Shown here: positions 34,085 through 51,401 of the stretch, piece by piece
Layout: each line of letters starts with the position of its first letter
How positions within the stretch are numbered: position 1 is the stretch's first letter
Assembly (NCBI GenBank): GCA_963777955.1
Contig: CAVZSQ010000022.1
Coordinates: forward strand, 928,001 to 992,000
Direction: 5' to 3'
DNA: 64,000 bases
From: Calditrichia bacterium
GTDB taxonomy: Bacteria > Calditrichota > Calditrichia > JAJRVZ01
The notes under the pieces: generated by a model
Database searches by the model: none
Told to the model about the DNA's origin: nothing
The model's input: only the letters and a program-made list of their open reading frames with translations
Translations under genes and position numbers: made by a program

Positions 34085-34181
34085 GCTAATACAGGTAAAG
34101 AAATTGGGTAAAGAAACACTTTAAGGCATTTAACCAGGCATTTAACCGTCTGGCCGTCAGATGATGGCAAGGAGAGTAATT

Positions 34182-35606
34182 ATGCGTGCAATCGGTAATT
34201 TTCTCTGGTTCATTCTGGGTGGCGTGTGCATGGGATTGGCCTGGTGGTTAATCGGCCTGCTGGCATATATAACGATCCTTGGAATTCCCTGGGGTAGATC
34301 CTGCTTCGTAATCGGAAAGTTCACGTTTTTTCCATTTGGCAGAGAGGCGATCAGCCGCAAGGAACTCAGAAACAAGGATGATATCGGAACCGGTGGTCTG
34401 GGTGTTATCGGAAATATCATATGGTTCATCTTCGCAGGTATCTGGTTGGCCATTGGCCATGTTTGCTCGGCAGTGCTTAACTTTGTCACCATCATCGGTA
34501 TCCCGTTTGGTATTCAACACTTGAAACTTGCAGGCATTGCGCTGGCCCCAATTGGGAAAACGATCGTGACCAAGGAGATTGCAGCCGCTGCCAGAAAGGT
34601 AAATACTGAGGCCACGATATCTTCTCTACGGTTATCTTTTTATATCTTACTCTCTCTATCTTTATATAATTGTGACCAGGGGGAAAGCACATTCTTCCCC
34701 TTGATAAATCCAAGGCTACAAATATATAATATAGCAGAACTGCCTCCGGCTGATAGATATTATTCTTTTTCTTTTATTGATCTCAACCAGGGCTGGGTTT
34801 TGTGCGACAGCAACATTATATACCGTACTATGGACGGTGGAAAGAACTGGGAAGAACAATTCTGTACCGCGGATTCTCAATTATTAAGAATCAGATTCGC
34901 CAGTGCCGATCGGGGATGGATCCTGGCCAGGGGCTCTGTTTACCGGTCAGATAACGGCGGGGAAGACTGGCATATTATTTATACGGACTCTAATATAACC
35001 CAATTTGAAAAAATAGCCTTTGTAAATGAACAAACCGGATGGATCACGTATTCTTCTAAGGGTAATCTGCTGCATACCAATGACGCTGGGAATAGTTGGA
35101 CAGTCCAGGAAACAGGACTGCCCTTGCACGTCCTTGGTTTTTCTTTTCTAAATTGTAACATTGGGTATGCTATCGATGCTCTCTCCTCGGTGGCCTCGAC
35201 ATCCGACGGAGGGAATAATTGGAGTATGAAAACAAAAGTACTTTGGCCTTATACGATATTTTTTCTGAATGAACAAACCGGTTTCATAGGCAATTTTACT
35301 TACCTGTCCAGCACCAGAATGGCGGCTAATATCTTCCGAACCGACGATTATGGGAATTCATGGCGGACCCTGGAAATACCTTTTTGTCAATTGGTAGGGA
35401 AAATAAGATTTATTGATACATTCCATGGCATGGCCGCGACAAGTGATGAGGAGACTGGTCAAATTATTTATACATGCAACGGAGGGGAAACCTGGAAAAT
35501 ATACAATGAATTAGATAGTTATCCGATGGATATTATTACAGTGGATAATAATTACATTTTTATTTTCTGCCAGAGCGGGAAAATTTATAAATTATATTTT
35601 GATTGA
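34182..35606 (+). CDS. In-frame fusion of YccF membrane protein and a YCF48/BNR-repeat propeller
   Basis: GNFLWFILGG..TILGIPWG..PFG twice (YccF); then LSLYNC and repeated TxDGGxxW motifs. Confidence 0.75.
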   Translation: MRAIGNFLWFILGGVCMGLAWWLIGLLAYITILGIPWGRSCFVIGKFTFFPFGREAISRKELRNKDDIGTGGLGVIGNIIWFIFAGIWLAIGHVCSAVLNFVTIIGIPFGIQHLKLAGIALAPIGKTIVTKEIAAAARKVNTEATISSLRLSFYILLSLSLYNCDQGESTFFPLINPRLQIYNIAELPPADRYYSFSFIDLNQGWVLCDSNIIYRTMDGGKNWEEQFCTADSQLLRIRFASADRGWILARGSVYRSDNGGEDWHIIYTDSNITQFEKIAFVNEQTGWITYSSKGNLLHTNDAGNSWTVQETGLPLHVLGFSFLNCNIGYAIDALSSVASTSDGGNNWSMKTKVLWPYTIFFLNEQTGFIGNFTYLSSTRMAANIFRTDDYGNSWRTLEIPFCQLVGKIRFIDTFHGMAATSDEETGQIIYTCNGGETWKIYNELDSYPMDIITVDNNYIFIFCQSGKIYKLYFD

Positions 35607-38164: not shown

Positions 38165-39883
38165 ATGCAAAATTTCAGTACTCATTTCGGTAAATATAAT
38201 CAGAAGGTAAACAGTACGGTCCAGCAGTTACAGCAAGATCGCTGCCTGGCCAGGATTGCTGAGCATGATTACACGCTCTGGCAGAATAAACCGGCTGAAA
38301 TAACCAACCGGCTGGGCTGGCTTAAAAGTCCGGAAGTTATGCTGCCGGCAGTCAATGATATAAATCAATTCACGGCCGAAGTGCGGGCGGCAGGTTTTAA
38401 GCAGGTTTTGCTTTTAGGTATGGGCGGATCGAGTCTGGCCCCGGAGGTTTACAGCCGTTCGTTCGGTACCAAGGCCGGATTCCTTAATCTTTCTATTTTG
38501 GATAGTACTGATCCCGGGGCAGTTCTGGCCAGGGAGCACAGCCTGGACCTCGAACATGCCTTGTTCATTGTCGCCACAAAATCCGGAGGTACGGTTGAGA
38601 CCTTTTCCTTTATGAAATATTTTTACAACCGCATGTGTTCGGTGGTGGGTACGGAACAGGCGGGAAAACACTTTATGGCCATCACTGATGCCGGCAGCGG
38701 ATTGGAAAAGTCTGCTGTAGAATTGAAATTCCGAAAAATATTCCTGAATGATCCGGAAATCGGCGGTCGTTATTCAGCGCTGTCTTATTTTGGATTGGTA
38801 CCGGCAGCGTTGACCGGCATCGATATCAAAGAATTACTCAACCGTGCTGAACAGATAAAGCAACAGACTTTTAAGGATAACGACAGCGAAGCCTTGCAGT
38901 TGGGTGCGGCTATGGGAGTGCTGGCCGCCCAGGGCATCGACAAACTGACGCTGATCCTGACACCGCTTATCGCTTCATTCGGCGCCTGGATCGAACAACT
39001 GGTAGCGGAAAGCACCGGCAAGGCAGGGAAGGGTATCCTGCCTGTCGATGGTGAAGAATTGCTCACACCGGGGCTTTATCCGGCAGACCGGTTATTCGTA
39101 TACCTGCGACTGACCGGTGATGAGCATCATGACGATCATATCAGCAATCTGATCAATGCCGGTAAACCGGTAATTCAAATTCAACTGCGCGATGTCTATG
39201 ATCTTGGCCGGGAAATGTTTCGCTGGGAACTGGCTACGGCCATTGCCGGTGTGGTGCTCGGCATCAATCCTTTCGACCAGCCCAATGTGGAATCAGCCAA
39301 GGTCCTGGCCCGGCAAATGGTTGCGACTTTTCAACAGACCGGAAAACTTGCGGAAACCGCGCCGACTTTAGTGCACCAGGGTATGAAAATATATGCCGGC
39401 ATTAATGCCGGCCAGCCACCGGCAGAAAACTTTTCGCAACTTATTTCGTCATTCTTTAAATCAGCACAAACAACAGACGATAAATCTAAACCGCGGAGTT
39501 ACTTGTCGCTGCAGGCATATCTGAAACCGACTGAACAGGTCGACAATGCCCTGCAGGGATTGCGGAATAAAATTCAATTAAAATATAACCTGGCTACCAC
39601 CACGGGTTACGGTCCGCGTTTCCTGCATTCAACCGGACAGTTACATAAAGGGGACAGTGGCCACGGGCTGTTTATCCAGCTTTTAGCCGGTATGCCCGAA
39701 GATCTGGCCATCCCGGATACACCGGGACTTCGGCCGGAATCGTCGATCAGTTTTGGTATCTTGAAGAATGCCCAGGCCATGGGGGATCGACAGGCTTTAT
39801 TGAATGCCGGTCGCCAGGTGATCAGTATCGATCTGGGAAATGATATCTTAAAAGGACTTAAGACTTTATCAGACGTTATCTGA
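38165..39883 (+). CDS. pgi: Glucose-6-phosphate isomerase (type found in Tal-Pgi fusions)
   Basis: RLGWL, GMGGSSL, TKSGGTVET, IGGRYS, QLVAESTGK, NPFDQPNVE, HSTGQLHKG. Confidence 0.88.
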   Translation: MQNFSTHFGKYNQKVNSTVQQLQQDRCLARIAEHDYTLWQNKPAEITNRLGWLKSPEVMLPAVNDINQFTAEVRAAGFKQVLLLGMGGSSLAPEVYSRSFGTKAGFLNLSILDSTDPGAVLAREHSLDLEHALFIVATKSGGTVETFSFMKYFYNRMCSVVGTEQAGKHFMAITDAGSGLEKSAVELKFRKIFLNDPEIGGRYSALSYFGLVPAALTGIDIKELLNRAEQIKQQTFKDNDSEALQLGAAMGVLAAQGIDKLTLILTPLIASFGAWIEQLVAESTGKAGKGILPVDGEELLTPGLYPADRLFVYLRLTGDEHHDDHISNLINAGKPVIQIQLRDVYDLGREMFRWELATAIAGVVLGINPFDQPNVESAKVLARQMVATFQQTGKLAETAPTLVHQGMKIYAGINAGQPPAENFSQLISSFFKSAQTTDDKSKPRSYLSLQAYLKPTEQVDNALQGLRNKIQLKYNLATTTGYGPRFLHSTGQLHKGDSGHGLFIQLLAGMPEDLAIPDTPGLRPESSISFGILKNAQAMGDRQALLNAGRQVISIDLGNDILKGLKTLSDVI

Positions 39884-39898
39884 GCGATTTCTGATATT

Positions 39899-42800
39899 CT
39901 AATCGGTTGCTGCCAGTTCGCGCATACCCTGAATTTTGATATTCAGCCGGTTTTCCAGGGTAGTGATGTTGGCCAGGTCTTTTTCAGTAACGAAGTGCAC
40001 ATCCAGCAATCCGCCCGCTTTATAACCGGTACGCTGGAAATTCATTTCATCCAGTGCTAAACTCCACCCTTCCAGCCAGGTCAATAAACCCTGCTGCTGA
40101 GTTTTATTACCTTTGAAATTAATTAACAGATCGATATCGCTGCCGGCCTGGGCAGTAGCATTCTGGGTACTGCCCACGACGTAAATGGCTTTAACTCCGA
40201 AGCGTTTTTTATCCAGTTGTGAGGCAAGTTTTTCGGTCATATTCATCCGCCAGCGCCAGTGTTCTTCTTTGGAGACGATACCGTACAGGGTTACCGGCAA
40301 TGGTTGGATTCGCAATGCTTCTTCACGGTTACTGAGCAAGCCCAGGGCCTGGTCCAGATCGGCATTCATCAGAATCTGCAGCACCATACCATTTGTTATC
40401 TGGGGAACTTCCAGCACATGAATAATATGACTGAGATGCTGAAACTGGGGTAGAATCTTGCCCAGTGAATTATGCGACTCGTTCAGAAAGCCGGAATTGA
40501 AAATAATTCCTTCATCATCGGGATAAAGGGGCAGATAGCGGATACCGGCTTCCACCAGGTCCTGGAAAAAGTGAGTTCCAAAAGAAAGATCAGGTACATA
40601 ATTTCCCTTTTTGCGGGCGATCTCGATTAATACCGCGCAATTATTAATCTCTGAATAGGTAACATTAACACCCAGTTTAATATCGCCGCGACTGCCCCAG
40701 CGTCCGGGTCCCATCAGGATGAATTGCCGCCTGGGTAAAATTTGATTGAGTTTCCCGACCACCCTGCCGATGGTGGCCAGTTCCGGTAATTCGACGATGG
40801 CGTTGTATTGCTCCGGATCCACATAAACGATATGGCTGATATTGGGTACGGTTCCATTGGATATAAAACGGTTGGCATTGAAAATAATCCGCTCCTGTGG
40901 AATATCCACCGGGATCTGGGAGGGGGCATCATAATGGGAATAACTTTGCGGCCGGCATTGTAACAGATAAAAATCTTCACCGTCTGAAGCAAATTCAATA
41001 TCTACCGGTGTGGCCAGGGCATTCTGCAGGGTTTTCATGATGGTGTACATTTTTTTGACAAAGTCGGTATCATTGCTCAATCCATCAAAAGTCACCACGG
41101 CATCGACATTGGAAAAATCCAGGTTGATGCTGAGCGGTTTACGTAAATGTTTGTCGGCATGCAATGAGATAATTTTTTCAATAGCCGGGTACTGGTTGCC
41201 GAATTTTGTCAGCAGTTCATCGATGTTGATGGTTTCAAAGCAATTCGCTTTCAGATTAAGCACATCAATTTTGTGCGGAGAATAGCGCAGCCGTTCTTCC
41301 AGGCCGACGGTTGCACGCAGGGCCGGTTGGCCCGGTGCGATCAGGATCGGATAGTCATCGCTGAGCCGGTCCACAGCCCGGGTACCCAGGCCCGGTACCA
41401 GGCGGATCAGGCCGTCTTCGCGTTTGATCCGCGGCGACCAGCAGAATTCATTGTTGCTGAAAGCCACACCGGCATAGGCAGGGAAAAAGTAATCTCCCAC
41501 AGTCCGGCCGACCACTTGCTGGATCATGATGCCCATTTCTTCATGGAAATCGGTCAGGCCGCGCTCAGCCCGGTATTGCATTGGATCAGGTCCGAGAGTC
41601 GAAGCATAAACTTCGGCGATGGCATCTAACAGTGCGTCGAGTCGTTCGTTTTTGGAACCCTGATTGCCCAGGAACAGACTTTTATATTTTCCCGAAAAAG
41701 CCGATCCCAGCCGGTCTTCCAGTAAACTCGAACTGCGCACAATCAGCGGTACTACCCCAAAATCGTCCAGAGCCATGGAAAGTCCCTGTACAATTTCCGG
41801 CGGAAAACTGGAGTTTTTGAATAACACGATCAACTGCGGATATTCTTTACGGATATCGTCGATCGATTTATATTTCTGATCGGTCATGTCTTCAAGATTA
41901 TTATAATGCATAAACTGGATCATGGTATCGGAGGTGAGATACCAGGTTTTAGGAATTTTGATATCGCGCAGAATATTATCCAGCTTGGCATTTTGTTCCA
42001 GAACCCGCCGGGCCAGAAAGACACCGGCGCTTTTACCGCCCAGTTTACCATGACTGCCGACCGGACAAACCAGGTGTTGGACCAGTTCATGAAAATCGCT
42101 GATCCGGATAAAATTTTTGGCAATGGTAACAAATTCCAGTTGATCGGTGAAGAAGCGGCGGATCAGGGCTGCCCGCACTCCGATACGGGCCGAAGGGGCC
42201 AATTCCAGCCCTTCGGGAGCGAGTTTGTAATAGCGGCGCAAGGCTTCGCTGACTTCGGGCAGGGAAGAACTGTTACTGGCAGTCGTACGTACCAGGAAAT
42301 TGGTTTTATCATTCTTGACCCATTCCTGGATCAGCGCCATTATATCCGCATCGCTGAGGTGGCGTGCAGCGATCTCAAAAACACGCTGGCTGAACAGACT
42401 GGAATCCTTGGACATTTGCCTTCTGCATGGGGGAATTGGTTTCGGACAAAAAGTCCTGCGAGCCATAACGGAGCAAAGGAATAAAATCCTGCAATACTTT
42501 TTCGGCATCGACAATTCCCCGCCAGATCAGGTGATTCAGCATTCTCCGGGATACTCTGGTGAATTCATCCGGATCGGTCCGCTGCAGCAGATCCAGTACC
42601 GCCTGCCAGTCGGTCGATCGGTTCTCGGCGATTACCCGCCTGGTTGAAGCCATTTTATCGTATACCAGTTTCAGTTGCTGAAACATGATATAGTGTCCAA
42701 CCCGTTTGGCAATCGAATTCAGTACCCGTCTTTCCTCTTTTAAGAAAGGGGCCTTCATCGGCCACAGGTTTATCATCCAGGTAAAAAATTTTGATCCAGC

Positions 42801-43087
42801 CAACCACCCTGTCCTGAACGGCGATATCTTCGCTGATAAACCAATGGGTTTCCTTGAAGTTTTCTGAAGTGTAGGTAAAATCCTGGTAGACGATCTTGAC
42901 GCAACTTAGTTCAGGGAATTGCATGCCCGATGGCAGGATTTTAATTATTTTATTAAAAATATCATCTATACTGGAAGCGGTATTCTGCAGTGCTTCCTCG
43001 ACAGCATACATGCAGTTTAATTCCTTGGCCCTTTCTTCAAGGATATCCAGCAGTTTATCTTTGGATTTGATTAATGGGATCAGGCAT
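39899..43087 (-). CDS. Multidomain protein: GAF-like N-terminus + PEP-synthase/PPDK N-terminal ATP-grasp + C-terminal nucleotidyltransferase (frameshifts ~43060, ~42738, ~42415)
   Basis: ERAKELNCMY..GPFLKEE; GKLGGK, IVRSSSLLED, FSGKY, IQQVV, GLGTRAVD, DIEFA, LQCRP; GPGRWGS, GTHFF; VVGST..GSDIDL..LLDVH. Confidence 0.8.
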
Positions 43088-44373
43088 TAGATCCACCCGC
43101 GGTCTTTGCAGGCCTGGGCTACGCGACTGATGGCGATGACGTAGGCCGCATCACGCATATACAATTTGCGGGATTTGGCCAGGTCGGAAACGGCATGGAA
43201 CGCTGCGGTCATTACCGTATCCAGGCGCTGTAGAACCTCATTTTTTTCCCAGTAGTAATTCATATTGCTCTGCACCTGCTCGAAATAACTGCAGGTCACT
43301 CCGCCGGCATTGGCCAGGAAATCGGGGATGACAAATATGTTATTTTTTTCCAGGATCTTATCGGCTTCAGGGGTGGTAGGACCATTGGCACCTTCGGCAA
43401 TAATACGCACTTTTTTATGGAGCCTACCGACATTTTCACCGGTAATCTGATTTTCAATTGCAGCCGGCATGAGAATATCGACTTCCTGTTCAAGCCAGGC
43501 TTCAGCAGGTAAAATTTCATAACCCAGTTCCCTGGCTTTGGTTTTATTGATCCCGCCAAAGCGGTCGGTAATTCCACGCAACTCGTCCAGTTTAATTCCG
43601 CTTTTGCGGCGGTAGGTATAGGAGGTCTGGTCGGTCTGATCCCAGCAGGCCACACATAACGTATTGCCCCCCAATTTTTCGAATAATTCGATGGCATACT
43701 GGGCCACATTACCGAATCCCTGCACGCTGGCAGTGGTGTTTTCCGGTTTTATACCCATATTTTTGAGGGCTTCCCGTAATGTAAAGACCAGACCATAACC
43801 GGTGGCTTCGGTGCGGCCTTGCGAACCACCCATTCCTACCGGTTTTCCGGTGATCAGACCCGGATATTTAGCACCGTGGATTATTTCATACTCATCGAGC
43901 ATCCATAACATATGCTGGGCATTGGTCATCACATCCGGCGCAGGCACATCCTGTAAAGGACCCACATTGCGGGCCAGTTGACGAATCCAACCGCGGCAAA
44001 TCAATTCCTGTTCACGTTGACTGAGATTATGGGGATCACAGATCACGCCCCCTTTTCCGCCGCCGAGAGGGATATCTACTACGGCACATTTCCAGGTCAT
44101 CCAGGTGGCCAGGGCGCGAACTGTATCAATCGTTTCATGAGGATGGAAACGGATACCCCCTTTACTGGGGCCCCGGGCATCATTATGCTGGACCCGGAAT
44201 CCGCGGAAGACCTTGACTTTGCCGTCATCCATCCGTACCGGTATGGAAAATTGAAATTCACGCATCGGATTGCGCAACAATTCTCTGGCTGCAGGATCAA
44301 GGTTTATCTGATCAGCTACTTTATCAAACTGAGCCTGAGCCATTTCAAAAGGATTAAAAGACTTTCCTTGCAT
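43087..44373 (-). CDS. gdhA: Glu/Leu/Phe/Val dehydrogenase, most likely glutamate dehydrogenase
   Basis: RGPSKGGIRFHP, MTWK, GGGKGG, DVPAPD, ITGKP, RTEATG, QGFGNV, AEGANGP, NAGGV.CSYFE. Confidence 0.93.
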   Translation of the reverse strand: MQGKSFNPFEMAQAQFDKVADQINLDPAARELLRNPMREFQFSIPVRMDDGKVKVFRGFRVQHNDARGPSKGGIRFHPHETIDTVRALATWMTWKCAVVDIPLGGGKGGVICDPHNLSQREQELICRGWIRQLARNVGPLQDVPAPDVMTNAQHMLWMLDEYEIIHGAKYPGLITGKPVGMGGSQGRTEATGYGLVFTLREALKNMGIKPENTTASVQGFGNVAQYAIELFEKLGGNTLCVACWDQTDQTSYTYRRKSGIKLDELRGITDRFGGINKTKARELGYEILPAEAWLEQEVDILMPAAIENQITGENVGRLHKKVRIIAEGANGPTTPEADKILEKNNIFVIPDFLANAGGVTCSYFEQVQSNMNYYWEKNEVLQRLDTVMTAAFHAVSDLAKSRKLYMRDAAYVIAISRVAQACKDRGWI

Positions 44374-44636: not shown

Positions 44637-45221
44637 ATGACCTATACTACCTATGCCGATATTTTTCGTCCAGGTGTGACGAGGAATGCACCCGTTGCCC
44701 GCATTTATGATTTTGTTCTAATCGTTGCTGCCTCAGTTTTTATCGCCCTGTGTGCTCAGATTGCTATCCCGCTGCCCTATAGTCCGGTCCCGATTACCGG
44801 CCAGACCCTGGCAGTATTATTGACCGGTATTTTACTCGGCAGCAAGCGGGGAAGTGCAGCCGTTGTGGCCTACTGTGCCGAAGGTGCAGCAGGGCTCCCG
44901 GTATTTGCCGGCGGCGGTTTTGGAATACAACATTTTATCGGACCGACCGGTGGATATTTAGCCGGATTCATACTGGCTGCTTATGCCTGCGGTTATCTGG
45001 CAGAGAGAGGCTGGGATCGTACTTTCATACTGACCTTACTTACCATGATCACCGGTAAAGTGATTATATATACCTGCGGCTTGCTCTGGTTGGCAAAATG
45101 GGTGGGATTTAATCAGGTACTGATCATGGGTTTATATCCGTTCATACCCGGAATGTTGATAAAAATTGCCTTGGCCACCGTATTGTTGCCGCTGGGCTGG
45201 AAGTTTTTGGGTGTAAAATAA
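44637..45221 (+). CDS. bioY: Biotin ECF transporter S component BioY
   Basis: PVPITGQTLAV, GLPVFAGG, GPTGGYL.GF, PFIPG. Confidence 0.92.
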   Translation: MTYTTYADIFRPGVTRNAPVARIYDFVLIVAASVFIALCAQIAIPLPYSPVPITGQTLAVLLTGILLGSKRGSAAVVAYCAEGAAGLPVFAGGGFGIQHFIGPTGGYLAGFILAAYACGYLAERGWDRTFILTLLTMITGKVIIYTCGLLWLAKWVGFNQVLIMGLYPFIPGMLIKIALATVLLPLGWKFLGVK

Positions 45222-47340: not shown

Positions 47341-49312
47341 ATGAAAGTATTATACAACACACCCGCCATACTTCTGCTGATCCTGATCAATATCAGCACT
47401 GTAACTTTGGTACGGGCACAGGAACACATAGGCCGGATCCAACGGGCCGATACGGTCCGGGTTCAGGCAGGAAGTATCATCTGGATTGCCGATTCTACTT
47501 TTATGGTGCTGAAAGACACGACGCTGGTATTTCCGTATACCAAGGTCTACCGGATTGAAACGAGTCCTTACGCCAGGTCTGATTCTTTTTATAAATCGAT
47601 TCGCACACGGGCGGATAAAAATTTTTTTACCAGAACACTGGGTGACCTGGTTCTGATCCCGGATGACCGGCGCCGGCGTCAAAGATCTGCGCCGTACAGA
47701 TACCGTGGATTTTCGCACCAGTGTGGAATATTTTATACCCTATACCGGTAAACGTCTGTCCCAAATCAGGTTTAAACAGGTCGATATTCTAGCCGGTTCG
47801 GTCTGGGATACCTCACTCGTCTCCGGTTCATTTGTAAGTAATACTCTTAATGCTCTGCATACTAAAACCAGGGACCAGGTTGTCGCCGATAACCTGCTTT
47901 TTCAATCAGGCGATTCTCTCCAGCCAAACGATCTGGCCGATACGGAACGGATCCTGCGTGCGTTGCCTTCAATCGAGGATGCGAGGATATATGTATCACC
48001 TGCTGCCCGGGATTCGGATGCCGTCGATCTGCTGATCGTGACCCAGGACCGTTTTTCCTGGGGACTGGGGATGACAGTGCTGACAGCCGACAAGTACAGG
48101 TTGCGTTTAATCAACCGCAATGTGCTGGGCTGGGGCGCAGAATTAAATTATGCAATGCTGTATGACCGGCAGGCACATCCGCTGCTGGCCCATGATTTCA
48201 AGTACAATGTATATAATATCAGGGGTAGTTTTATTTCCAGCGTGTTTAACTATATTTATTCGCAAAAAAGGCAGTCGTTCTGGCTGTCTTTTAACCGTCC
48301 ATTCATCTCGCCGCATATTTCCTACATCGGCAGTCTGGATCTGGGCAGTGTCAGAAATTTAATGACTTTTAATAACGAGGGGATCAGTATCAGTGAGTAT
48401 GTTAAAGTATTTAATCAGGACCTCTGGATCGGTCGGATTTTTACACTTGGTAAACCACAGGAACGTAACAACCTGATTCTTTCCGGCCGGGTAAGCCGGA
48501 CCCGTTTCAGTGAACGCCCCGGGATAGAGGTTGTGAATACTTATCTATATAATAATACCTTGCTGCTCGGCCGCCTCTCCCTGGCTCAGATCAAGTATTT
48601 TAAAAGCAGGATGATCTATTCTTTCGGCCGGACAGAAGACGTGCCCTATGGTCTGCTGATCCAGGGTACTTCGGGATATGAAGTCGGTGAATTGCAGAAC
48701 AGATACTACTTCGGTTCCGACTTTTCCTGGGCCAACACTATAGGTCATTTGGGCTACCTGGGACTATCTGCAGAATTTGGTATCTTCAGGCATGCAAAAG
48801 ATTTTGAACAGGGGGTACTTAACCTGCAGCTGCTGTATTTCAGTCCCCTGCTGGAATTGCGCCGTTTTAACATCCGCCAGATAATTAAAATGGCTTTTAC
48901 TAATGGGATCAATCGTTCAACCCTTGAAACAATCAATCTTAAAGATAAGTTGAAAGGCTTTTCCAAAAGCGAACCGGCCGGAAGAGGCAATTTGATCGTA
49001 AATCTTGAAACAGTAACATTTGCTCCCTGGTATTTCTATGGTTTTAAATTTGCCTTGTTTACCTACGCTGATTTTGCATTATTGTCAGAACGATCGGTTT
49101 TTACTTCCCGGACTGAACTCTATTCAACGGTTGGTCTGGGCTGCCGTTTCAAAAATGAAAGTTTGGTTTTTAAAACCTTGAACTTGCGGATTGGTTATTT
49201 TATTCGTAATCCCCTGGGCTCAGGGCCATGGGGTTTTGAGATCAGCGATGATGGATCAGAAATTTCCCAGGGATTACTGGGATTAAAACCGGCCGTCCCG
49301 CAGTATAAATGA
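47341..49312 (+). CDS. POTRA-like/Omp85-type outer-membrane protein (frameshift ~47662)
   Basis: Signal peptide; LH.KTR..V..NLLF..GD, ERILRALP.IEDA, NVLGWG, FGRTEDVP, GLG.R..NE.L. Confidence 0.65.
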
Positions 49313-49801: not shown

Positions 49802-51401
49802 ATGAATCCGCAGCAGAATTATGATGTTATCGTTATCGGTTCCGGGATAGGTGGATTGACCTGTGCCAGTATCCTGGCCCAAATCGGGGGGAAAAAGGTA
49901 CTGGTTATAGAGAGACATTCCAAAGCCGGAGGATTTACCCATACCTTTAAACGTGAGACGAAATACGAATGGGATGTGGGCTTGCATTATGTGGGGCAAA
50001 TGCAAAAAGGTTCTCCCGTCCGAGCTCTATTTGATCTGATCACTTCCGGCCAGGTGAAATGGAACCGCATGCCGGATCCGTATGATGTTTTTATTTATCC
50101 TGATTTCAAGTTCGGGGCCCGTTCCGGCCGGACTAATCTAGAACAGGACCTGGTAGCCCGTTTTCCGCAGGAAGAACAGGCCATAAAAAAATATTTTAAT
50201 GATCTGAACAGGCTGAGTGCCTGGTCGTCCCGTTTTGTGCTTGGCGAGCACCCTGCCCGGTTGGCTGCATTTTATTTCTCCTGTGTTTACTGCCAGAGGA
50301 TCAGATCTGGCAGCACAAACGACGGGTGAGTACCTGCTGCGCAACATCAATGATCCGCACCTGCGGGCGGTCCTGGTCTCACAATGGGGAGATTATGGCT
50401 TACCGCCGGTCAGCAGTTCACTGGTAGTTCATGCTGCAATTGTCAATCATTATCTGGATGGCGGTTATTATCCGGCCGGAGGCTCAAAAACGATTGCCGA
50501 TTCAATTATTCCGGTTATTGAACAGGCCGGCGGCCGGGTGCTGCTCAATCATCAGGTGACCGGAATTCTGATTCAAGACAAGCGGGCAACAGGTGTTACT
50601 GCTATAAAGAGAAAAAGTGATGACAGCACTGAGCAAATATTTTTGGCCGCACAGGTGGTTTCGGATGCAGGAGCCTGGATAACCTATGGACAACTTCTGC
50701 CTGATAGATATCAACATCCCTTCGTTAAACAGGTGAAGAATTATCCGGGAGGTGTTGCCAATGTCACTTTGTATGTCGGATTCAAAGAGGATCCGCGCGG
50801 GATTTTACCTGTTCAGGGTGAAAATTATTGGATTTATGATGGATACGATCATGATGATTTGTACGAGCGGCGGAATGCATTACTAAAGGGGGAAGCCCGG
50901 GCGGCATTTCTTTCATTTCCTTCACTGAAAAGGGGGGAGGTACAAAGCCATACTGCTGAAATTATGTCCTTTGTGGATTATGAACCGTTTAAACGCTGGG
51001 CCGACCAGCCGTTAAAAAAACGGGATCAGGAGTATCAGCAACTTAAAGAGAAAATATCACAGGCGCTGCTCGACCTGGTAGAAAAACACCTGTCGGGATT
51101 TAAGCAGCAGGTGGCTTACTATGAGTTATCCACTCCTTTAAGTACCGAGTATTATACCGGTTTTCCCGAAGGTAATATTTACGGCATCCCGGCCACACCG
51201 TCCAGGTATAGGCAGAAATGGATCGGCCCGCGGACACCGTTAAAAGGATTATTTCTGACCGGTACGGATGCTGTGGGACACGGGATTGTCGGAGCCCTGC
51301 TGGGTGGGGTGGTGACAGCAGCGTTGATACTGGGTCTGCCATGGAGTATGATCAAGATATTCAGAACTGCTCTCAAATACAGCAAGAATTTACCGGAATG
51401 A
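49802..51401 (+). CDS. Phytoene desaturase / all-trans-retinol 13,14-reductase-like FAD oxidoreductase (frameshift ~50240)
   Basis: VIGSGIGGL, GGFTHTF, WDVGLHYVG, GGYYPAGGS, LSTPLS, LFLTG.D..HGIVGAL. Confidence 0.8.

Follow-up and report, generated by a model that had tools for sequence, protein, structure and literature searches.

A sensor, dikinase and nucleotidyltransferase protein encoded beside bacterial glutamate dehydrogenase genes, a candidate regulator of the enzyme

We analyzed 64,000 nucleotides of DNA from a Calditrichia bacterium (GenBank assembly GCA_963777955.1, contig CAVZSQ010000022.1, positions 928,001 to 992,000), hereafter the window, whose minus strand carries a glutamate dehydrogenase (GDH) gene, gdh, followed immediately by a gene for a large multidomain protein that we call the partner. 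An initial annotation made from the sequence alone had proposed that the two genes form a post-translational switch acting on GDH. We find that the gdh-linked partner family is real, widespread and apparently uncharacterized, and that control of GDH by a dikinase-derived enzyme is the likeliest, still tentative, reading of what it does. The main features of the locus are as follows.

43087 to 44373, minus strand: gdh, an intact open reading frame (ORF) of 428 amino acids for a Glu/Leu/Phe/Val dehydrogenase (Pfam ELFV_dehydrog and ELFV_dehydrog_N)
43624 to 43644 (GDH residues 244 to 250): WDQ insertion and Tyr252 of the linked GDH clade, next to the cofactor-binding strand
43085 to 43089, minus strand: TAATG, the gdh stop overlapping the partner start, spanned by contigs from sequencing runs X1 and X3
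39899 to 43087, minus strand: partner gene of about 1061 codons with three +1 insertions, encoding a GAF domain, a helical region, an ATP-grasp domain, a His-bearing domain and a nucleotidyltransferase (NTase)

The TAATG overlap stands as the initial annotation described it, being covered by record 4 of run X1 and record 18 of run X3, and its sequence suggests translational coupling of the two genes. Conservation of the overlap was ruled out: in a genome of the same genus (G043) the two genes stand about 170 bp apart, with a 12-bp direct repeat of the junction sequence flanking the gap, and gaps of 7 to 613 bp separate the genes in the 23 loci elsewhere in which they are direct neighbors. The window gdh product is nearest to archaeal-type GdhA (NCBIfam GdhA_Arch, 483 bits against a cut-off of 750), has 1euz as its best PDB match, and belongs to a conserved clade (66 to 80% identity) that occurs beside the partner gene. 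This clade shares Tyr252, Tyr285, Tyr411 and the WDQ insert. The source genome encodes a second GDH on contig C3 (44% identity), which stands without a partner gene and lacks the WDQ/Tyr252 region, which is a possible docking or modification site; the search for such sites is weak because only one of the six family-II comparison GDHs is truly unlinked. We note that bioY lies divergent from gdh at 44637 to 45221, as it does in two related loci (L001 and L002), and that a promoter and terminator scan stayed at chance level (9 versus 8.2 and 6 versus 5.8).

The partner gene is interrupted in this assembly, as the frame opened by its ATG stops after 10 codons and reading continues in three further frames, giving four pieces. 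An intact homolog of 1061 amino acids (P0001) matches these pieces at 93 to 96% identity and bears out the length of about 1060 residues first estimated. The frameshifts were located by comparison with G043 (84.5% nucleotide identity), against which the window gene carries three extra single bases, and with independent contigs from runs X1 to X4 (one contig per run, depth 2.8 to 4.7), each break being covered by one to three runs.

43071 to 43073, minus strand: frameshift 1, one extra base, a probable assembly error, missing from G043 and from contigs of X1, X2 and X3
42744, minus strand: frameshift 2, one extra base beside a homopolymer run, missing from G043 and from the X4 contig
42418 to 42419, minus strand: frameshift 3, one extra base, missing from G043 and from contigs of X1 and X4

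These comparisons make sequencing or assembly error the most likely source of the breaks. Frameshifts also interrupt 7 of 58 orthologs of G043 genes in this assembly (0.11 breaks per kb), and every catalytic codon of the partner is intact. That the window copy is instead a true pseudogene is quite unlikely, and would in any case be independent of the function of the family: the three insertions fall inside 660 bp and the same-genus copy has an in-frame stop, whereas near-identical contigs of other runs lack each insertion, with record 18 of X3 otherwise identical. We left local decay this small weight because the break rate is above background and G043 carries the in-frame TAG. Programmed frameshifting was ruled out, as relatives lack the extra bases. 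By eye, apparent splits into two ORFs affect a FAD oxidoreductase-like gene (49802 to 51401) and an outer-membrane-like gene (47341 to 49312), and a small membrane protein runs into a repeat protein by an apparent frameshift fusion (34161 to 35606), all consistent with an error-prone assembly. On its other side the partner gene is met by a convergent phosphoglucose-isomerase-like gene (38165 to 39883), 15 bp from the partner stop.

The partner comprises five regions, numbered here as in P0001, for which a whole-protein structure model was obtained (predicted local distance difference test, pLDDT, 82; predicted template modeling score, pTM, 0.64). Reference enzymes are phosphoenolpyruvate (PEP) synthase, pyruvate phosphate dikinase (PPDK) and rifampin phosphotransferase (RPH).

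42648 to 43056, minus strand: GAF sensor domain, residues 11 to 146 (VIA Z 13.2, root mean square deviation 2.5, 126 residues aligned to 3cit)
42065 to 42620, minus strand: helical region, residues 156 to 340 (DSSP on the model; no Pfam match)
40940 to 42064, minus strand: ATP-grasp domain of the PEP synthase/PPDK/RPH type, residues 341 to 715 (PPDK_N E 2e-58; VIA Z 22 to 26 to RPH and PEP synthase)
40325 to 40939, minus strand: diverged His-bearing domain with GRWG and SxG[TS]HFF motifs, residues 716 to 920 (His838 codon at 40571 to 40573)
39902 to 40264, minus strand: minimal Pol-beta-type NTase, residues 941 to 1061 (Pfam NTP_transf_2)
40169 to 40174, 40130 to 40138 and 40001 to 40003, minus strand: GS, DxD and third Asp of the NTase motif

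The N-terminus, originally described only as sensor-like, has a GAF fold (root mean square deviation 2.2 to 2.5 over 123 to 126 residues), with the GAF domains of NifA and PtsP also matching at Z of about 11 and, as a lead only, Atlas rows carrying Pfam GAF at 0.88 to 0.89. The PEP synthase/PPDK ATP-grasp module seen at the outset is confirmed by its PPDK_N match, and its residues K351, R450, E697, Q709 and R711 are invariant in 97 of 97 sequences from three subtypes. These correspond to PPDK K22, R92, E323, Q335 and R337; structures of the K22A and R337A PPDK mutants are among the structure entries found. No pyruvate-binding triosephosphate isomerase (TIM) barrel was recovered by Pfam, and in the model the NTase stands in its place.

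The initial annotation overlooked the conserved domain that follows, in which the GR[W]G and SxG[TS]HFF motifs are invariant. His838 is invariant in 70 of 70 and 180 of 181 relatives in two alignments and in 97 of 97 sequences across the three subtypes. Modeled alone (pLDDT 94.9), the domain places His838 at the N-terminus of a helix, with a strand after the helix. Its best VIA matches among 48,161 chains reach Z 5.0 to 5.5 (root mean square deviation 3 to 4 over about 110 residues), and five of the first nine rows are phospho-His carrier chains (RPH, two entries of enzyme I and two of PPDK); the pyruvate kinase C-terminal domain is likewise among the best of these weak matches, and many further rows presumably belong to the swivelling beta/beta/alpha fold. 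The pattern G-T-H-F-F-x-x-L-x-x-x-x-I parallels T-S-H-A-A-I-L-A-x-x-L-E-I in the PF00391 domain of the source genome. Searched alone, residues 716 to 920 gave no Pfam match below E 0.04, PF00391 included, and no PDB-sequence match; a match to Crov588 was discarded as a repeat artifact. With the whole model, the ATP-grasp and His regions align jointly on PPDK 1dik (residues 308 to 933 on 12 to 523, Z 17.6, root mean square deviation 6.0), on PEP synthase 2ols (Z 25) and on RPH 5hv3 (Z 26.4). Judged from its predicted structure, the domain is likely a diverged swivelling phospho-His carrier.

The C-terminal NTase first reported also stands, with NTP_transf_2 matches above the Pfam cut-off in the window (E 7.5e-7) and in P0001 (E 6e-6) and Atlas top matches to the same family at 0.97 to 0.98; the motif spacing originally given does not, being GS-x10-DxD rather than x9. 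Minimal Pol-beta NTases have the motif hG[GS]x9-13DxD plus a third carboxylate, and the GS-x10-DxD...D pattern is kept among 181 full-length relatives (G971 in 181, S972 in 175, D983 in 178, D985 in 179 and D1028 in 172), together with an extra invariant surface motif, W-x2-GWS...N-x2-RTG. Neither the NTase nor the helical region appeared among the matches listed in whole-model fold searches.

Linkage to gdh holds well beyond the window. We examined the 80 best GTDB loci of the family, drawn from Calditrichota, Ignavibacteria, Bacteroidota, Acidobacteriota, Aminicenantes, Zixibacteria, Planctomycetota, Spirochaetaceae, Bacillota, Cloacimonadota, Myxococcales and others (more than 10 named lineages), counting gdh at an identity of at least 55%. 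The locus includes gdh in 69 cases, directly upstream in 23, upstream with an insert in 41 and on the other strand in 5. Nine of the other 11 have less than 3 kb of upstream DNA and two lack gdh; in both of these genomes a GDH of this type is encoded at another location (70% and 74%). In the reverse direction, a family gene is present in 64 of 80 GDH-centered metagenome loci, with 13 cut short and three lacking it, so the conserved linkage expected from the initial annotation was recovered both ways; the reverse test samples the linked GDH clade only, because its query alignment came from linked GDHs. Within the source phylum, 83 of 86 genomes have a family match and gdh lies no more than 1.5 kb away in every one of the 30 best loci, the source genome itself having a single family member. 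The family is large (7965 matches among 7999 candidates scored). Pairwise identities of GDH and partner across 43 loci gave a Spearman coefficient of 0.34, which we do not take as co-evolution because the pairs are not independent.

Paralogs of the partner with other domain combinations also adjoin gdh. A short paralog of 580 amino acids, consisting of the ATP-grasp and His domains only, lies directly upstream of the partner in 40 of 80 loci, often overlapping it and sometimes fused to it (P0121 and P0123); the source genome has no short paralog, yet keeps the gdh overlap. A REC-type paralog of 990 amino acids, with a receiver domain, is accompanied by a gdh, mostly of family I, no more than 1.5 kb away in 24 of 30 loci, and one 15-kb cluster (L231:2713-17956) contains a phosphoesterase and three gdh genes, each adjoining a family member, two of them REC-type and one NTase-type. 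The variation of the N-termini between GAF and receiver-like domains is as expected for a regulated enzyme. Among the 150 cluster representatives, a good number of them fragmentary, 24 carry the NTase. Since NTase-less paralogs share the ATP-site residues and the His and adjoin gdh, it is the dikinase (phospho-His) core and not the NTase that is constant.

The recurring neighbors are otherwise few. In 33 of the 80 loci the partner has a calcineurin-like phosphoesterase gene next to it; counting just the 64 loci with at least 1.2 kb of downstream sequence, the figure is 32. It is encoded on the other strand in 30 of the 33. No such gene is beside the window partner, and the source genome has only a distant relative. 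The cultured Melioribacter sp. Ez-97 (L034) has an intact gdh and partner pair together with both the short paralog and the phosphoesterase. Apart from the phosphoesterase and the short paralog, no adjacent family recurs beyond about 8 of the 80 loci, and the cluster seen at 8 loci is the antisense frame of gdh. Two side observations concern these neighborhoods: a third, more diverged paralog of 555 amino acids, which bears a TQGTHFL motif and matches Pfam poorly or not at all, belongs to these gene clusters in three records (L052:13001-14671, L056:411-2069 and L043:11719-13386), and in two others (L010:2-2207 and L021:120-1853) gdh is preceded closely by genes for a response regulator and for a HisKA_3 histidine kinase whose N-terminus resembles the GAF module of the partner.

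A precedent for such a core is VadK (Rv1127c) of Mycobacterium tuberculosis, a PPDK in truncated form. It undergoes autophosphorylation on His422 and binds enzymes of the methylcitrate cycle (PMC13400623). Like the partner it lacks the pyruvate barrel and joins an ATP-binding domain to a His domain, which in the partner is a probable phospho-His carrier, and the same paper proposes that it controls metabolic enzymes by interaction. VadK differs in being about 50 kDa and in being described as PPDK-derived, the ATP-grasp of the partner being nearest to PEP synthase and RPH. The partner also has a larger and highly diverged His domain, with its GRWG and SxG[TS]HFF motifs, adds GAF, helical and NTase domains, and is linked to gdh rather than to methylcitrate enzymes; GDH is not mentioned in PMC13400623.

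We hypothesize that the partner is a sensor-gated, VadK-like, dikinase-derived histidine (di)kinase that controls the neighboring GDH post-translationally, a reading to which we give somewhat less than an even chance. A metabolite bound to the GAF domain would gate ATP-dependent phosphorylation of His838, the beta-phosphate being transferred to the histidine and AMP released by analogy with PEP synthase and RPH. The phosphorylated His838 would then alter GDH activity, either by phosphate transfer to GDH or by phosphorylation-dependent binding of the kind proposed for VadK. In the branch that has it, the NTase may provide a second output by placing a nucleoside monophosphate (NMP) on GDH, on the enzyme itself or on a partner protein, and the metallophosphoesterase that is often encoded next to it might erase the mark. 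This proposal draws on the gdh linkage, the invariant ATP-site and His838 residues, the predicted fold and the VadK precedent, from which control of GDH itself is inferred. The switch suggested by the initial annotation is in this form still the likeliest reading, while its emphasis on the NTase is weakened by the 24 of 150 representatives that carry one and by the NTase-less paralogs beside gdh.

Several observations weigh against this proposal. Adjacency cannot tell regulation of a protein from shared metabolism or co-regulation; the reverse linkage test was confined to the linked clade, and related loci are not independent. Some family genes have no nearby gdh (L018, L047, a Prevotella record and, at 1.5 kb, 6 of 30 REC loci), and 23 of 150 representatives lack the His domain while having the GAF, helical and ATP-grasp parts, often at a length of 700 to 723 amino acids (e.g., P0167, P0168 and P0203-P0208), these relatives probably being natural forms. 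The carrier assignment of residues 716 to 920 found no Pfam or PDB-sequence support, its VIA scores of 5.0 to 5.5 fall short of 8, the mark set by the tool, and a Foldseek search gave no match at E <= 0.001. Three breaks in 3.2 kb of the partner gene exceed the assembly background (P ~0.006), and the TAG of the G043 copy lies in frame near residue 731. A complex prediction for GDH with the His/NTase half of the partner gave no answer (score 0.00), which is evidence neither way.

An alternative closer to the initial annotation makes the NTase the primary writer, adenylylating or uridylylating GDH with the GAF domain and dikinase as a gate and the metallophosphoesterase as the eraser. GlnE adenylyltransferase and GlnD uridylyltransferase are Pol-beta NTases that act on nitrogen-metabolism proteins, and the partner shares with them the GS...DxD...D motif and a position beside nitrogen metabolism; it differs in that its NTase is a minimal domain, fused to a dikinase core and optional in the family, and no Pfam or NCBIfam match indicates the paired NTase or NTase-HD-ACT architecture. 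The catalytic triad is retained in 172 to 179 of 181 relatives, the additional surface motif is invariant, the linked GDHs offer the conserved Tyr252, Tyr285, Tyr411 and WDQ insert, and the phosphoesterase adjoins 33 of 80 loci. The low frequency of the NTase among representatives (many being fragments), the short and REC paralogs that adjoin gdh without it, the 120-residue domain lacking GlnE/GlnD partner domains, and a proposed eraser that is encoded on the other strand at 30 of its 33 loci and missing beside the window gene all tell against it. The antenna of mammalian GDH is not known from bacterial GDH. This lessens the value of a precedent for nucleotidylation in which SelO AMPylates mammalian Glud1 and lowers its activity, since the site, Y464, sits in the antenna (PMC12375108). 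The MNT/MntA NTases are comparable in domain size and motif, with weak matches to MntA (E 6e-4), 2rff and 1wot, whereas the partner NTase is fused to a 940-residue enzyme and no HEPN gene is among the recurring neighbors. We consider an NTase-led mechanism unlikely.

A second alternative, also unlikely in our estimation, is that the partner is a small-molecule dikinase or ligase, like RPH, PigC or phenylphosphate synthase, that activates a metabolite tied to GDH (2-oxoglutarate, glutamate or the nicotinamide cofactor), the two genes simply sharing a pathway. The nearest structures are indeed small-molecule phosphotransferases (RPH Z 26, PEP synthase Z 25, HpeI Z 18), weak NCBIfam matches include PigC, RedH and RPH, and the helical region 156 to 340 could bind an acceptor. 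The 580-residue paralog, however, combines ATP-grasp and His domains without any acceptor domain, the variable N-termini are of sensor types, and several paralogs each beside their own gdh on one contig fit cognate regulation better. The partner resembles PEP synthase, PPDK and RPH in its ATP-grasp (Z 17 to 26), in the conserved Lys, Arg, Glu, Gln and Arg of the ATP site and in the placement of its His domain; it differs from them in lacking a pyruvate or rifampin acceptor domain, in scoring far under the family cut-offs and in having a sensor and an NTase.

A signaling enzyme aimed at another protein (a PII-like protein, a response regulator or the enzyme's own paralog), near gdh only through a shared nitrogen/carbon regulon, appears less probable still. 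The short paralog, which immediately precedes the partner in 40 of 80 loci, frequently with an overlap and at times as a fusion, would be an obvious partner for such an enzyme, and the same GAF-like module occurs in the HisKA_3 kinase beside gdh in L010 and L021; on the other side, beyond paralog and phosphoesterase no adjacent family recurs in more than about 8 of 80 loci, and the source genome retains the gdh overlap without having a short paralog. Finally, the partner is very unlikely to be an ordinary PEP synthase or PPDK, an identity given by JGI and UniRef names ("pyruvate, water dikinase," "phosphoenolpyruvate synthase") and consistent with the PPDK_N match, which we reject because neither sequence nor model contains the pyruvate-binding C-terminal PEP-utilizers barrel and NCBIfam scores are far below threshold (PEP_synth 50 against a cut-off of 740, pyru_phos_dikin 11 against 843). 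By analogy, the partner resembles a VadK-type regulatory dikinase with a GlnE-like add-on, but it falls outside both families as they are defined.

The REC-type paralog bears on an older observation in Bacteroides. By its title, the study of Baggio and Morrison (1996; PMID 8955404, cited in PMC4539542) found that GdhA activity of Bacteroides thetaiotaomicron depends on one or more trans-acting genes downstream of gdhA. In Parabacteroides distasonis and Phocaeicola massiliensis, a 3-kb REC-type gene lies between two family-I gdh genes (L232:4435-13727 and L233:4385-14356), divergent from one and convergent 3.5 to 4.1 kb downstream of the second, with other genes between. A 3-kb segment was reportedly involved in the 1996 case. 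The gdh types scored in L232 are PRK14030 and PRK14031, the PRK14031-type gene being the convergent one, and a Prevotella record (L234) has no gdh within 6 kb of its REC-type gene. Because it lies downstream of gdh in two Bacteroidales records, we hypothesize that the REC-type paralog is a candidate for the 1996 factor; it differs from the window partner in lacking the NTase, and its location is known from other Bacteroidales rather than from B. thetaiotaomicron.

A fuller version of our proposal would be a widespread and previously undescribed system of bacterial GDH control in which each GDH has a cognate dikinase-derived enzyme that passes phosphate from ATP through the diverged His onto GDH, with branch-specific nucleotidylation (the NTase as writer and the phosphoesterase as eraser), a tandem paralog performing the reverse reaction, and the REC-type member as the Bacteroides GdhA factor. 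Taken as a whole this is possible, if rather unlikely. The literature searched, in which most subscription papers were missing, contained no description of the partner family, and to our knowledge bacterial GDH has no dedicated covalent regulator in the way that glutamine synthetase has GlnE.

GDH links carbon with nitrogen metabolism, and a family often labeled PEP synthase stands beside its gene in more than 10 lineages, with paralogs in gut Bacteroidales. If the family does regulate GDH, many annotations and metabolic models would be corrected and a protein-directed role would be added for the swivelling-His dikinases, and the REC-type paralog gives the 1996 work on Bacteroides GdhA a named candidate for its downstream factor.

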